Made by a program: the position numbers and the translations under genes. This document shows positions 9,510 to 14,150 of a DNA stretch of 64,000 nucleotides, piece by piece; the first letter of the stretch is position 1, and every line of letters begins with the position of its first letter. The stretch is taken from NCBI GenBank assembly GCA_044222185.1, contig JBGANV010000003.1:352001-416000 (forward strand), in the 5' to 3' direction. This DNA is from Planctomycetota bacterium (GTDB lineage: Bacteria; Planctomycetota; GCA-002687715; CAIWVZ01). Under the pieces are notes generated by a model. It made no database searches and was not told the DNA's origin. It saw nothing but the letters and a program-made list of their open reading frames with translations.

Positions 9510-9581
9510 GTGATGGCGGAGGTTGGACGACGGTTGGCGTTCAGGATTCCAAAGGTGCGCGTGAAGGTATTATCGGTCGCG

Positions 9582-11678
9582 ATGAGGGCACTTCGACAGC
9601 TGGCGATCCTCGCCGGGGTCTCCGCGGTCGTCGGAGCGCAGTCTCCGGCAGATCCAGGGTTCCGAGTCTATCTCTGGTTGGAGGGCGCCTTCGACCTCAC
9701 GGCGACGAGCGTGGCGGCGATCCGGGACCTGGGGTTCGGCGGCGTGAACGCGGAGAGCCCGGCGGACGTCGAGCGGGTCGGGCCGACGGGAATGCCGTTC
9801 TACGTCGACCACGCCGTGCCGAAGGGTTTCCTCCACATCAGGCCCGAAACCTTCACCAGTGCGCGCGATGCGTTCCGCAAGTCCCCCGGCGCCGCGACGC
9901 TGGGTCGCCCCACCTGCCTTCGGGACCCCGCGGCACTCGCAGACGCCGAGGCCGCATTGAAGCGCGTCGCACAGGTCTGTCGGACGTTCCGGCCGGACTT
10001 CGTGTCGCTCACGGACGAGCCCTCCGCGACGCGTGGGATCAACCCGATCGACTGGTGCCAGGACGCCCGGTGCGTGACCGCACTTCCGGCCTTCCTCACC
10101 GAGCGCTGGGGGGACGCGCAGCGCGCGCGCGAGGTCTGGGGGACGCATTGGCCCGCGAACGCTCCCCCGGTTCCCGTGGATACGGAGGACGCGCGGCGCG
10201 CAGCGTTCCACGCCATCGGTCCACCTTCGTTGATCGCCGCATGGAACGACACGCGCAGCTTCGCCGACCAGGCCTTCATCGACGCCGTGGCGCACCTCGC
10301 GAGCGGCCTGCGGCGTGAGCTTCCCGGCGTGCCGGTCGGGCTGAACGGCGTGTCCATGCCAAGCGCCTTCGGGGGCTTCGACTGGGAGCAACTCGCGCCC
10401 GTCCTCGACGCCATCGAGCCCTACGACAACGGCGCCGCGCGAGACCTCATCGAAGGATGCGCGCGACCGGGAACGTCATTCGCTCACACGTACTTCCCGG
10501 AGAGTCGAGATGCGACGAGTCTCGCGCATGAGCTGTGGCATTACTTTCTGAAGGGGGATCGGGCCGCGATCTTCTTCAGCACGCGCCACTGGCTCATGGC
10601 GAACGACCCCAAGCGCCCGACGCCGCTACTCGAGGCGGTCGCGCCCCTGCTGAAGGAACTGGCGAGCGATGCGCTGGCACCCTGGCGTCGGTCGCGGCGC
10701 CTTCGGCCGCAGGTCGCGATCCTGCACTCCATGGCGTCGACACGCGCGCATTGGCTCATCGACACGCGACACGACGGAACGAGCTGGTTCAACCGCCTCA
10801 GTTCCTACGAGGACGAGAACTCGTCTGAAGCCGTCAACCGCGCCGCATGGACCGCGTTGCTTGCGGACCTGGGGCTCTCGTATCGGTTCGTATCGACGAT
10901 GGATCTGCGCAGCGGCGCGTTGGCGAAGAGCGACGTCTCCGTGCTCGTGCTCCCGCGAACCATCGCGCTCAGCGACACCGAGGCACGCGCCATCGAACAC
11001 TTCTCGCAGGCACACCTCGTCCTCGCTGATCGGGACATCGGGCTGTTCACGCACCGCCTGGAACGCCGACAGAAGCCCGCCCTCGACGACCTGTTCGGCA
11101 TCACGCGCGCGGGCCCCGTCGACCTCTCGACGCTCGGGGATCTCACCGTTCGTGGTCCCACGCCGGCGACGCCGCACGAACGTGCGATCACGGCCGCGGG
11201 CGCAGAGAGCGGAGCATCCATCGATGGCGTCCCCGTCCTTTTCGCGCGGGGTTCCGCCGGCGGGCGAGCCGTCTATCTGAACCTTCGCATCGGCAGCTAC
11301 TCGAAGGACCGGGTGAGCGACCCGGACCGCGCCGCGCGCCTGCGCAACTGGATCCGCCCGCAGCTCCTGGGGAGTCAGATTCGCGCCAGGGTCGACCTCC
11401 TCGAACGGGCGACGGGGCGACAACCCCTCATCACCACTCACGTCCGGACGGATGGCGACGACCTGCTGGTGGCGTTCGAGGCGCCGCTCCCAGCCACCGA
11501 CTCCCGTCCTGGAAGTGAATCCCGGCCGCATGCCGCGCCCGTACCATTCGTCGCCCTCGTCCCCGGGACCTTCCAGTTCACGGACGCCGTCAGTGGCGCC
11601 GAGCTCGGCTCCGGGAACCGGATCGAATCCACGACCAGCCCCGATCGGCCGAGAATCGTCCGTCTCCGCCGGCGCTGA
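9582..11678 (+). CDS. Secreted glycoside hydrolase, clan-A/GH42-like, with beta-galactosidase trimerisation-like domain
   Basis: Signal peptide MRALRQLAILAGVSAVVGAQ; SLTDEP acid/base-like motif; PQVAILHS...LADLGLSYRFV...VLVLP...LSDTE trimerisation-domain pattern. Confidence 0.65.
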   Translation: MRALRQLAILAGVSAVVGAQSPADPGFRVYLWLEGAFDLTATSVAAIRDLGFGGVNAESPADVERVGPTGMPFYVDHAVPKGFLHIRPETFTSARDAFRKSPGAATLGRPTCLRDPAALADAEAALKRVAQVCRTFRPDFVSLTDEPSATRGINPIDWCQDARCVTALPAFLTERWGDAQRAREVWGTHWPANAPPVPVDTEDARRAAFHAIGPPSLIAAWNDTRSFADQAFIDAVAHLASGLRRELPGVPVGLNGVSMPSAFGGFDWEQLAPVLDAIEPYDNGAARDLIEGCARPGTSFAHTYFPESRDATSLAHELWHYFLKGDRAAIFFSTRHWLMANDPKRPTPLLEAVAPLLKELASDALAPWRRSRRLRPQVAILHSMASTRAHWLIDTRHDGTSWFNRLSSYEDENSSEAVNRAAWTALLADLGLSYRFVSTMDLRSGALAKSDVSVLVLPRTIALSDTEARAIEHFSQAHLVLADRDIGLFTHRLERRQKPALDDLFGITRAGPVDLSTLGDLTVRGPTPATPHERAITAAGAESGASIDGVPVLFARGSAGGRAVYLNLRIGSYSKDRVSDPDRAARLRNWIRPQLLGSQIRARVDLLERATGRQPLITTHVRTDGDDLLVAFEAPLPATDSRPGSESRPHAAPVPFVALVPGTFQFTDAVSGAELGSGNRIESTTSPDRPRIVRLRRR

Positions 11679-11699
11679 ACCGCCTCAGATCCGGACCAA

Positions 11700-11746
11700 G
11701 CACCACATTTGGGCCAGGTCACAGCCACACCCACCACATCTTGGGC
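11700..11746. promoter_or_regulatory. Tandem NrdR-box-like operator pair
   Basis: GCACCACATTTGGGCC (11700-11715) and CCACCACATCTTGGGC (11731-11746) both keep the conserved C4,A6,A8,T9,T11,G13 of the NrdR consensus acaCwAtATaTwGtgt and start 31 bp apart. Confidence 0.5.
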
Positions 11747-11806
11747 GTCGCGGACTGCCGCAAACCGCCACCGCCGCGCTTGCAACAGGCCTGTGGAGTT
11801 CTTGCG

Positions 11807-11834
11807 TTGACCACCCCCCCGGTAGTTCTATAAT
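11807..11834 (+). promoter_or_regulatory. Near-consensus sigma70 promoter
   Basis: TTGACC (11807-12), 16-nt spacer, TATAAT (11829-34), in an intergenic region of a GC-rich genome. Confidence 0.75.
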
Positions 11835-11840
11835 CCCCGC

Positions 11841-12040
11841 GCTGTCGACGGAGAGCGTCTTGTTCACGTTGCCAGCGGCGCCCGAAGAACACCGGGTCCG
11901 CACCCGCCGACTTCCGGCTCGACGCAAGACAAAGCTCGGATTTGGCCACGATTGGAAAAGGTCCCGTAACTCCTGATCCGTCCCCGATCCGACTTCCGAG
12001 ACCCCCGGTGCCTTCAAGTGCCGGGGGTCTCGTCCTTTTC
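11841..12040 (+). other. About 200-nt transcription unit: structured ncRNA and/or 38-aa basic sORF (11860-11976)
   Basis: Lies between the promoter and the terminator. Stems GAGC-GTCTTG/CAAGAC-AAA-GCTC, CGGCG/CGCCG, CCCG/CGGG, TCGGAT/ATCCGA. GGAG RBS 6 nt before TTG 11860, giving (M)FTLPAAPEEHRVRTRRLPARRKTKLGFGHDWKRSRNS. Confidence 0.5.
11997..12040 (+). terminator. Intrinsic terminator-like hairpin
   Basis: CGAGACCCCCGGTGC-CTTCAA-GTGCCGGGGGTCTCG followed by TCCTTTTC. Confidence 0.75.
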
Positions 12041-12161
12041 AGCGACCACCTCAGCTCGTCGCACACCCGCGCCCGCAACGTTCACGGCGCCGCCGGCAAT
12101 CGATCGGCGGGTGCCACTCCCGCCGGCGAAATAGTTCCCGCGCCCAAATGAGTCCCCTAAG

Positions 12162-14150
12162 ATGCGTGCCGACTCTCGTGCGAAGGCACGGCGCCAGTTC
12201 CCGTTGATGGTCTATCTGCTGCTTCAAAACGAAGTCCTCGAGAACGTTCCGTTCGACCTCACGCGTGAGCTCGTTCTCGTTGGCCGGGGCGCCGACGCCC
12301 ACATCAAGGTCGACCACCCGAGCGTCTCGCGGATCCACGCGCGGATCGAGCGAACGAGCGACGCGCTGCTCGTCGAGGATCTGGGGAGCCGCAACGGGAC
12401 GTTCGTGAACGACCGTGCAGTTGCATGTCCCACGGCGGTCCACCCCGGTGACCGCATCCGCTGCGGTGAGGTCGTGTTCGTCGTTCGCGAGCGCGACGCC
12501 GCGCCGGGGGTATCCGCCGCGGCACCGGCGCTCACGCGACGCACGCTGGTCGGCGCGGCCGTCGTGATCCTCGCTTGTTGCGCCGCAGCCGCGTTCGCAT
12601 TCACGCGAACGCGTCATGAGGAAGACCGCTCTCCCGCGCCAGTCGCCACGGCGCCAGCCGAGCCGGTCACGAACGCGAGACCCTCGAACCACGCAGCGAT
12701 GCAAGAGCTTCCGGTGGTCGTGGAGCCGCAACCCGAACCTCATTCACGCCCGGTGATCGTCGAGGCCCCGCCAGTTCCCAAACCCCAGCCGCCGACGGAA
12801 GTCGTCGAGTCGCCTCCTGCGCCGACGGCAGCGGCGACGCTGACGCCGATGGAAACGGCCGCGCCCAAGCCGGCTCCCGCGACCGAGGCGCCGTTCCCGG
12901 ATCGACTCGCCGAGGCCCGCGCGGCTGGCTTCGAGGCCGTATCGGCCCTGCTCGCCGATTGCGACCGCCGCGCCCTTCACGACGAAGCCGACCGAACGCT
13001 CGCCGTCGCCCTGGAGATGCGCCCCGAGGACGCCACGCTCCGTGCGCGCATCGGAGACCGCCGATACCTCGGTCGCTGGCGATCTCACGCCGACCTCGTG
13101 AAGCTGGGCGTGCTCGATGACGCCGGAAAACTGCGTGGATCCGACACCGACCGAGCCCGCGTGCGCCGCCTCTACATCGACCTGGTCGGACGCACGCCGC
13201 TTCTCACCGAGCTTCCGACCGCCCTCGCCATGAGTCGCGAGGAGATGGTCGACAAACTCCTCGCGTCCGCGGAGCACGCATCACTCTGGTACGAGGACGA
13301 GCTCTTCTACTTCCTCCTGCTCGACGATTTCCGCCCGTCCGAGGACCGGCTGAACGACCTGCCCGGGCGCCTCGCGGCGGCACAGGTCACCGTCAAGGAC
13401 GGGATCGGCGAGATCGTGAAGTCCCAGTTCTTCAACGCCCGCAATCCGGGGAACGACACCTACGTCACCGTGATCCTCGAGCAACTGCTCGGCATCACGG
13501 TGCAGAAGGACCCGCGACTCCTCGAATCCGGGAAGAAGATGTACGACGGCTACGCGACGTCGATCTTCGGGAAGCGCGGCGCGTCGCAGGGTGACTTCGT
13601 CGAGATCTCCATGCAGCAGCCGGCGTTCTCGTCCTTCTACGTGGCGCGCGCCGGCCGGCGCCTCTTGGGCCAGGACCTCCCGAAGAAGGAACTGGACCGC
13701 CTGGCGGCTCAGTTTCATGGCGAGCCGCGCACGTTCCTGGCGATCGAACGCGAGATCGTCCTGTCGGCGGCCTACACGGAAACGTGCAAGACGCCGCGCA
13801 AGAAGACCGATCAGCAGTTCGTGCGCACCCTCTACCACGACCTTCTCGCGCGGGCGCCGACCTACCAGGAGCTGCGCAACATGCGCAACGCGACCCAGGC
13901 GCTCGCCGACCCGGTGGGGATCCGCTCCGTGATCATCAAGGCGATCCTGGAGTCGGAGTCCGTGGCACCGCCGCCGAAGAACGAGATCAAGCCCGCGACC
14001 TGGATCCCCGATCAATTCCTGCACATGCTGGGACGATCGCCGAGTCCCGCGGAACTCGAGACGTTCCTCGACGTCTGGAAGACGCCCGCGTGCCGCCCGT
14101 CGACGATCCTGCATGCCATCCTCACGAGCGCCGAATATCAGCACTACTGA
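12162..14150 (+). CDS. FHA domain, TM helix, Pro-rich linker and DUF1549/DUF1553-like helical domain
   Basis: FHA motifs VGRGADAHI, SVSRIHARI, EDLGSRNGTFVN; TM LVGAAVVILACCAAAAFAF; repeated RRLYIDLVGRTP / RTLYHDLLARAPTYQE / LHMLGRSPSPAE, ending AILTSAEY. Start may be 12207. Confidence 0.75.
   Translation: MRADSRAKARRQFPLMVYLLLQNEVLENVPFDLTRELVLVGRGADAHIKVDHPSVSRIHARIERTSDALLVEDLGSRNGTFVNDRAVACPTAVHPGDRIRCGEVVFVVRERDAAPGVSAAAPALTRRTLVGAAVVILACCAAAAFAFTRTRHEEDRSPAPVATAPAEPVTNARPSNHAAMQELPVVVEPQPEPHSRPVIVEAPPVPKPQPPTEVVESPPAPTAAATLTPMETAAPKPAPATEAPFPDRLAEARAAGFEAVSALLADCDRRALHDEADRTLAVALEMRPEDATLRARIGDRRYLGRWRSHADLVKLGVLDDAGKLRGSDTDRARVRRLYIDLVGRTPLLTELPTALAMSREEMVDKLLASAEHASLWYEDELFYFLLLDDFRPSEDRLNDLPGRLAAAQVTVKDGIGEIVKSQFFNARNPGNDTYVTVILEQLLGITVQKDPRLLESGKKMYDGYATSIFGKRGASQGDFVEISMQQPAFSSFYVARAGRRLLGQDLPKKELDRLAAQFHGEPRTFLAIEREIVLSAAYTETCKTPRKKTDQQFVRTLYHDLLARAPTYQELRNMRNATQALADPVGIRSVIIKAILESESVAPPPKNEIKPATWIPDQFLHMLGRSPSPAELETFLDVWKTPACRPSTILHAILTSAEYQHY

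Follow-up and report, generated by a model that had tools for sequence, protein, structure and literature searches.

The 64,000-nucleotide (nt) window analyzed here, i.e., the whole stretch G000:C7:352001-416000 of a planctomycete genome (G000), contains at 11807-12039 a stand-alone gene for a noncoding small RNA (sRNA) that occurs once in each of the 23 genomes available for its class, an uncultured group of planctomycetes. We propose, at a probability of about 0.75, that this sRNA is a trans-acting antisense RNA using two contacts to repress the messenger RNA (mRNA) of a tiny Lys/Ala-rich, histone-H1-like protein. This proposal is carried by the complementarity of an invariant sRNA hairpin loop to the 5' leader of the Lys/Ala-rich gene, the flanks of which switch together with those of the sRNA; the direction of regulation, i.e., repression, is one that we infer. 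Trans-antisense control of a histone-like protein is of a known kind, and it is the complementarity between this loop and this leader that is new.

A single-copy noncoding RNA gene

The unit, all features of which lie on the plus strand, opens with a promoter whose -35 hexamer TTGACC (11807-11812) and -10 hexamer TATAAT (11829-11834), separated by a 16-nt spacer, together match 11 of 12 consensus positions. Scanning 10500-13500 returned this one site against 0.1 expected from shuffles, and a script count over both strands of the entire assembly (7,084,855 bases in 16 contigs, ~68% G+C, 93.8% complete) found the pattern TTGAC[AC]-N16-18-TATAAT a single time, at the sRNA promoter. At the other end, a hairpin scan and covariation identify an intrinsic terminator of 15 base pairs (bp; 11 of them G-C) with a 6-nt loop (11997-12032), followed by the U-tract TCCTTTT (12033-12039). 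An earlier, sequence-only reading had picked out this promoter as its best sigma70 match and had paired it with a strong terminator around some 200 nt of DNA; both signals hold up, and the predicted transcript, with its start placed 7 nt past the -10 hexamer and its end at the U-tract, measures ~199 nt (11841-12039). The minimum free energy (MFE) of 11841-12040 is -88.6 kcal/mol (z = -4.30), with 1 of 200 shuffles as stable, and the gene is single-copy in G000.

Compared by BLASTN with 40 relatives, the unit had syntenic homologues in three of three genomes of the sister genus g2 (each with a strong promoter, an RNA of ~176-178 nt, and a similar terminator) and otherwise chance matches. Because BLASTN reached only these three, a covariance model was required. 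The first such model, R1, which represents the conserved 3' half, matched all 23 genomes of the order, with a false match in genome G007; the true G007 copy was found at 39.5 bits by the improved model, R2, and confirmed by eye. Extended to the class, the search covered these same 23 genomes (4 families, denoted f1 to f4, and 13 genera), each carrying one strong R2 copy at 39.5-107.5 bits, with next-best matches of at most 28.2 bits. In a phylum-wide sample of 151 genomes, 7 class members scored 72-102 bits; no sRNA was found in the 144 others under the stricter filters of this search, by which weak relatives could be missed, and the 8 weak matches there (25-31 bits) were to the terminator only or to a tRNA end. 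All carriers met in a pattern scan of named GTDB records are metagenome-assembled genomes, labeled Planctomycetota, Planctomycetia, or Planctomycetaceae, plus one labeled Kuenenia, and a similar scan of metagenome contigs gave 4 loci, including two new members (L067 and L069). One candidate from the genome contigs, L053, was discarded as a false positive composed of the end of a coding region and a terminator.

The near-consensus promoter (GTTGACC-N16/17-TAtaaT) recurs in 22 of 22 homologues, 211-394 nt upstream of the terminator end (a distance inflated in L023 by a masked N-run), and the -35 hexamer at the equivalent place reads TTGACC, TTGACA, or TTGCCA in all 22. Homologous RNAs are 176-225 nt long in f1 and f3 and 254-360 nt long in f2; their 5' part varies in sequence and length, and their conserved 3' part comprises, in order, a helix P1 (UUCGGAN/NUCCGAA), a variable middle helix, an apical GG[UCCCGUAA]CC hairpin, and the terminator. 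P1 in G000 is formed by UCGGAU (11936-11941; columns 18-23 of alignment A5) and AUCCGA (11987-11992), as alignment covariation supports, and this is the second of the two helices in the sequence-only reading, which is thereby confirmed. The other, a long interrupted stem, fared less evenly: the MFE fold of the 5' domain (11841-11931) does contain 11857-11862 paired with 11925-11930, closing a three-way junction with inner helices beside a small hairpin, yet this domain is not conserved in sequence. The apical hairpin with its flanks forms what we term seed 1 (GAAAAGGUCCCGUAAC, 11955-11970), and the GGUCCCGUAA block is intact in 20 of 23 genomes (alignments A4 and A5 plus G007). Long forms from f2 (L011-L013, L017-L019, L024, and L026) also possess a conserved GUUACC-N4-GGUAAC hairpin just 5' of P1 and, farther upstream, a GUGGA(A/C) ... 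UCGA(A/G) motif.

When 22 sequences were aligned by fitting to the model, a procedure that favors the structure, 95.8% of cells were paired and 14 of 23 pairs had changed on both sides; none of 500 shuffles reached the observed value, and slid controls contained at most 6 such pairs. P1 was 92% paired, with 4 of its 7 pairs changed on both sides, and the terminator stem was 98.7% paired, with 6 of 11 so changed. When the full-length RNAs were folded independently by MFE, this hairpin and the terminator came back in almost every one. Across the phylum, unrelated loci (L043-L050) repeatedly show terminators built as GAGACCCC(C/G)GG ... CC(C/G)GGGGUCUC with a U-tract, so that conservation of the terminator stem is by itself not specific to the sRNA.

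Codon-level conservation, the counterpart to which base-pair covariation was compared, is missing: among 21 homologous RNAs no open reading frame (ORF) is shared, and a 38-amino-acid (aa) ORF suggested earlier for the G000 unit is indeed open there and has no homologue in the other 20. The frame across the invariant GGUCCCGUAA block varies between genomes, a 1-nt insertion or deletion falls within the putative frame between two close relatives, and homologue L014 lacks any ORF of at least 12 aa.

No Rfam 15 family (4227 models) reached its gathering threshold anywhere in the window, and none of the four matches with an E value of at most 10 in 11000-13000 overlaps 11807-12040; the novelty suggested from the sequence therefore stands. 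Homologues L012 and L014 and the target leaders L075 and L109 likewise matched no Rfam family above chance, and ARAGORN reported no tRNA or transfer-messenger RNA (tmRNA) in the window. At ~190 nt, with a very strong promoter and a universal, single-copy distribution in the lineage, the sRNA does resemble 6S RNA (RF00013). It differs in having no RF00013 match at its locus and in MFE folds that lack an end-to-end closing stem or central bubble, consisting instead of separate 5' hairpins, the 3' hairpin domain, and the terminator. Genome G000 encodes its signal recognition particle RNA, RNase P RNA, and tmRNA at other loci, as well as a full-length 6S candidate (G000:C1:77549-77724, plus strand) at 42.1 bits versus the RF00013 gathering score of 46.4; sub-threshold full-length RF00013 matches (29-42 bits) lie at loci other than the sRNA in 12 of 23 class genomes, which suggests a divergent 6S RNA missed by the Rfam threshold in this lineage. 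Architecture and these separate matches argue against a 6S-like RNA. An Hfq-dependent sRNA or a Csr/Rsm sponge was rejected as well, neither partner protein (Hfq, PF17209; CsrA, PF02599) having a match in the 93.8%-complete G000.

Public sequencing runs holding the stretch derive from activated-sludge, wastewater, and bioreactor samples. Four RNA-library runs from four studies each contributed exactly one contig in 11500-12500, lying wholly inside the unit with no loose ends, namely (i) 11849-12036 (188 nt, run X11), (ii) 11848-12004 (157 nt, X15), (iii) 11854-12004 (151 nt, X17, for which the RNA status of the library is a guess), and (iv) 11849-12039 (191 nt, X19, a strain variant with 6 differences). 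Contig starts at 11848-11849 lie 7-8 nt past the predicted transcription start, and two ends (12036 and 12039) fall within the U-tract. The flanks of the unit showed no coverage in these four runs, which the rules of the mapping tool do not count as evidence and which we leave out of the argument. We take these contigs as a supporting hint of expression; in our proposal, the unit encodes a stand-alone sRNA that would be abundantly transcribed. Absence from Rfam, class-wide conservation, compensatory pair changes, and short contigs confined to the unit all bear out the novel sRNA that was one of the options raised from the sequence.

Complementarity to an unlinked mRNA leader

The complement of the invariant loop occurs at seven 10-mer sites in G000, one being the sRNA gene itself. 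A single site extends to a perfect 16 nt (G000:C7:591082-591097, outside the window and read as RNA from the minus strand), for which we estimate a chance expectation of ~0.003. It falls within the leader of a miniature gene (G000:C7:590880-591200, minus strand, likewise outside the window; L075, L076, and L105) that reads, in order, (i) a promoter, TTGCAT-17-TAACTT, (ii) a 5' hairpin, (iii) a second hairpin carrying the site, (iv) a third hairpin, whose stem joins UACCUUCC to the Shine-Dalgarno (SD) sequence GGAGGUA, (v) a UUG start, (vi) a 28-aa ORF of almost only Lys, Ala, and Gly, and (vii) an intrinsic terminator.

Searching with the pattern TTACGGGACC-N25-60-TGGCNAA matched 20 of 23 genomes, of which 19 were judged to hold true units; two extra matches look like chance, and a reversed-pattern control gave 2. 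The unit of G009, with one substitution and at a contig end, was found separately, and that of G017 was found through its ORF. The encoded proteins begin MAK(K/A/T) and are 21-30 aa long in f1, f4, and part of f3; elsewhere they reach 69-154 aa through Lys-rich repeats. Their composition is almost purely Lys/Ala/Thr/Arg/Val/Gly, without any hydrophobic stretch. Four of them were compared with Pfam: the 154-aa form matched HC2 (chlamydial histone H1-like) at 27.7 bits (E = 3.5e-6), below the cut-off of 40, a second reached E = 0.17, and two gave nothing. Variation in repeat number has been reported for chlamydial Hc2, as excerpted from one study (PMC2848022), and the 21-154-aa range of the target homologues recalls that variation.

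The two genes lie 18.7-29.7 kb apart on the same contig and are transcribed away from each other in 11 genomes (G003, G005, G006, G008, G009, G011, G016, G018, G019, G020, and G021). They are 227 kb apart and convergent in G000, which suggests a rearrangement there.

Loop (11955-11970) and leader, which together form contact 1, are complementary in 20 of 20 genomes with both partners. The cognate contiguous Watson-Crick duplex, anchored on the invariant core, spans 9-18 nt with a mean of 14.15 (n = 20), versus 11.5 for cross-genus noncognate pairs (n = 364), and when partners were permuted using one representative for each of the 13 genera, 0 of 5000 permutations reached the observed total. 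The flanks of sRNA and leader switch together, matched insertions included. Following GUAA, an sRNA C is met by a leader G (GUAA-C/G-UUAC), ACC by GGU, ACCC by GGGU (GUAA-ACCC/GGGU-UUAC), AACC by GGUU (GUAA-AACC/GGUU-UUAC), GC by GC (GUAA-GC/GC-UUAC), and CCCUU by AAGGG; preceding GG, AAAA is met by UUUU (AAAAGG/CCUUUU), AU by AU (AUGG/CCAU), and GAU by AUC. A single G-U pair lies within the duplex of G021. Eight pairs were cofolded, and in all 8 the duplex was the preferred state, by -10.7 to -24 kcal/mol after the cost of opening the two hairpins is deducted. On the mRNA, contact 1 occupies a complementary leader hairpin 32-41 nt upstream of the start codon. The locus thus combines its own promoter and terminator, an RNA that is untranslated by ORF comparison, and compensatory complementarity to an unlinked mRNA, as befits a trans base-pairing sRNA.

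A second sRNA-mRNA contact probably exists beside the leader site, formed by the loop of the terminator. This loop is unusually large (12-16 nt) in most relatives, is conserved in most members, and in the majority of genomes has a complement around the start codon of the target mRNA. Among 20 genomes, the longest loop-to-start complement measures at least 8 nt in 11, 5-7 nt in another 6, and at most 4 nt in the remaining 3, and the start codon falls within it in 14. Its cognate mean is 7.15, whereas 400 shuffled loops averaged 4.3 and never exceeded 8. Here too, as read from the output, the partners switch together, in three compensatory switches (GCCAAUUCCC/GGGAAUUGGC, GCCAAAGC/GCUUUGGC, AAGUCCC/GGGACUU, and UGAUUCCC/GGGAAUCA). 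A dimer fold of the G000 pair placed the stretch just 5' of seed 1 against the start region, a result on which we do not rely.

Proposed repression and its alternatives

Model: the complementary hairpins of sRNA and leader would probably first meet in a loop-loop kiss, then zip into a 12-18-bp duplex. The large terminator loop would pair with the start codon and surrounding bases, thereby blocking initiation. Where contact 1 acts alone, duplex-specific cleavage that removes the protective 5' hairpin, or blocking of a standby site, would be more likely. A potentially nucleoid-condensing protein would in this manner be held in check.

Several observations weigh against this proposal. With respect to the pairing, members of one clade do not count as independent cases; the duplex of G006 contains an uncompensated mismatch, leaving 9 contiguous bp; and contact 1 is lost in G017, in which sRNA loop and leader site have both diverged and cofolding no longer joins them. 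The latter looks like correlated loss. In that genome, the complement of the diverged loop matched only the sRNA gene itself and mismatched chance sites, and contact 2 is retained, as judged by reading the sequences. By pattern, no target unit was found in G014 or G015 (89-90% complete), only the antisense of the sRNA gene itself being matched. Contact 2 is weak in G000, with a 6-nt loop and a 6-nt complement at +6 to +11, and amounts to only 3-4 nt in G002, G007, and G009. As for mechanism, contact 1 lies outside the normal ribosome footprint and so cannot block initiation directly. The histone-like nature of the target is suggested by composition and one sub-threshold Pfam match. Finally, neither the ends nor the strand of a transcript can be proved from assembled contigs, and some DNA may be present in an RNA library.

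The state of the SD sequence bears on the sign of regulation. In MFE folds of 19 leaders, it lies within a conserved anti-SD:SD hairpin (UACCUC/GAGGUA and variants) in all 19; when 17 target leaders were aligned by MAFFT and passed to RNAalifold, just 4 pairs of this hairpin were retrieved, and the per-sequence folds were relied upon because the MAFFT alignment is not structure-aware. With the SD already sequestered, repression and activation are both conceivable. The same pairing could thus carry the opposite sign, the sRNA activating the Lys-rich gene, for instance by remodeling the leader so as to open the SD hairpin or by shielding the mRNA from decay. A buried SD would suggest translation that is off by default and needs an activator, and contact 1 lies upstream of the SD hairpin, as do the contacts of known anti-antisense activators. 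However, the anti-SD strand is not paired by the sRNA, and the SD hairpin persists unchanged in most of the 8 predicted sRNA-mRNA dimers; moreover, a terminator loop complementary to the start codon would block initiation in the majority of genomes. We regard activation as unlikely, while still the foremost competitor of repression.

The strongest promoter in the genome seems excessive for one target, and the large 5' domain is left unexplained by the pairing described above. The main role of the sRNA might thus lie elsewhere, with other mRNAs or with a protein that recognizes the invariant loop, making the leader one target among others or a titrating decoy. A 13-nt complement to seed 1 (GTTACGGGACCTT) does occur on the minus strand of G000:C16 (~5425 in reverse-strand coordinates), inside or at the start of an ORF, and may be a second target or chance. 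Against such a role, RNAduplex comparison of the loop region 11955-11982 with 21,185 start-codon windows of G000 gave an energy distribution like those of two shuffled seeds and one reversed seed, so that this single-genome prediction was uninformative, with no other target standing out; the covariation is specific to the Lys-rich gene leader; and in G017 the leader site diverged along with the loop. We judge this possibility distinctly improbable.

More improbable still is a cis-acting leader or attenuator governing read-through into the downstream FHA-domain gene and cytochrome genes, as entertained in the sequence-only reading for the cytochrome operon. At every locus seen, the sRNA and the gene that follows it do share a direction, with 30-170 nt between them. 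That next gene is, however, an FHA-DUF1549 gene in f1 and f3 and a different one in f2, and at several loci, by eye, it has its own -10-like box past the terminator. No antiterminator pairing was seen by eye in a nonexhaustive search, and the terminator stem, which is very stable, has held its pairing through compensatory changes. Complementarity to the unlinked mRNA explains the conserved loops instead.

There is next to no chance that the unit is the mRNA of the 38-aa basic peptide, translationally repressed or otherwise, in spite of its TTG-initiated frame (11860-11976, stop TGA at 11974-11976) with a preceding GGAG (11850-11853), as conservation follows RNA pairing and not codons.

Related systems and genomic surroundings

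The nearest known system to the proposed two-contact repressor is IhtA-hctA (PMC4355289, PMC3469542, PMC8343073) of Chlamydia, which also belongs to the Planctomycetes-Verrucomicrobia-Chlamydiae (PVC) superphylum. There, a hairpin loop of the sRNA IhtA is reported to cover the AUG of the mRNA for the histone-like protein HctA, needing only a 6-7-nt G/C-rich contact around the AUG (PMC4355289, PMC3469542). Both are small noncoding RNAs that pair directly, in our case as judged by sequence alone, with an mRNA whose product is small, very basic, rich in lysine, and histone-like (putatively so in the planctomycetes). A hairpin loop may cover the initiation codon here as well, by the predicted terminator-loop pairing in the 14 genomes noted above, although this pairing is weak in G000, G002, G007, and G009. 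No Hfq was found in G000. In contrast to IhtA-hctA, the dominant contact in the planctomycete system is a perfect 12-18-bp duplex 32-41 nt before the start codon, any contact with the start codon is supplied by the terminator loop and differs among genomes, and the target peptide consists purely of Lys/Ala/Thr repeats and ranges widely in length; the sRNA itself has no detectable homology to IhtA, as judged from the absent Rfam match and not from direct alignment.

Two further systems provide partial precedents. In OxyS-fhlA, two hairpin loops of the sRNA contact two mRNA sites, one of them at the translation start. The use of two separate sRNA loops for two separate sites of one mRNA would be common to both; here, contact 1 is far longer and perfect, closer to that of a cis-antisense pair, and one of the loops is that of the terminator. 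In the type I toxin-antitoxin system IstR-1/tisB, a trans-encoded antitoxin RNA binds far upstream in the leader. The similarities lie in a long, near-perfect complement in the leader, at a good distance before the ribosome-binding site that serves a tiny ORF, in an ORF product that is possibly harmful in excess, and in the plausibility of standby-site or RNase III-cleavage repression for contact 1. Unlike in IstR-1/tisB, the product is no hydrophobic membrane peptide and the genes are not adjacent; a type I toxin-antitoxin pair was rejected as the target ORFs lack a hydrophobic stretch. Base-pairing through terminator loops is described for sRNAs of E. coli (PMC11979758). Those sRNAs likewise employ the terminator loop as a regulatory pairing surface, differing in organisms, RNAs, and targets.

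Regulatory RNAs are almost unknown in Planctomycetota: our literature search for sRNAs of this phylum found no publication, and a 2022 review (PMC9029176) tabulates no more than 8 distinct sRNAs from the PVC group in its entirety. Here, an sRNA and the mRNA that it probably targets emerge from a class for which metagenome-assembled genomes are the sole source, through co-variation between two unlinked loci of a sort rarely obtained from sequence alone, and in parallel to the one well-studied case, that of Chlamydia. The pair is also small enough for direct reporter tests in E. coli.

Planctomycetota are noted for condensed nucleoids. A histone-H1-like repeat protein as target would link RNA regulation to nucleoid organization. 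One could go further and imagine an RNA switch for chromosome compaction, in which the two-contact sRNA holds the H1-like protein off until a signal stops sRNA production; we put this forward tentatively, considering it rather doubtful. If true, it would be a convergent or anciently shared counterpart of the IhtA-HctA developmental switch of Chlamydia, would mean that an entire uncultured class of Planctomycetota from wastewater and marine settings has a hidden cell state, resting or with a condensed nucleoid, and would suggest RNA control of H1-like proteins as a theme across the PVC superphylum.

As to the surroundings of the sRNA gene, the downstream FHA-DUF1549 gene, listed at 12162-14150, probably starts at ATG 12207, as judged from relatives. 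A -10-like TAAGAT lies at 12157-12162, and relatives have TAGAAT or TACAAT directly past the sRNA terminator. The gene that replaces it in f2 (L012, L017, L019, L024, and L026), also co-directional, has a product that looks secreted and carries the motif LPHVAGS...YEVLLP in common among these loci. Upstream, Pfam and NCBIfam scans of the two proteins preceding the sRNA gave no match. One of these, a 722-aa protein (9510-11678, plus strand), has an orthologue upstream of the sRNA in f1, f2, and f3 as well, and its language-model features liken it to GH42-type glycoside hydrolases with a score of 0.99, which we offer as a lead only.

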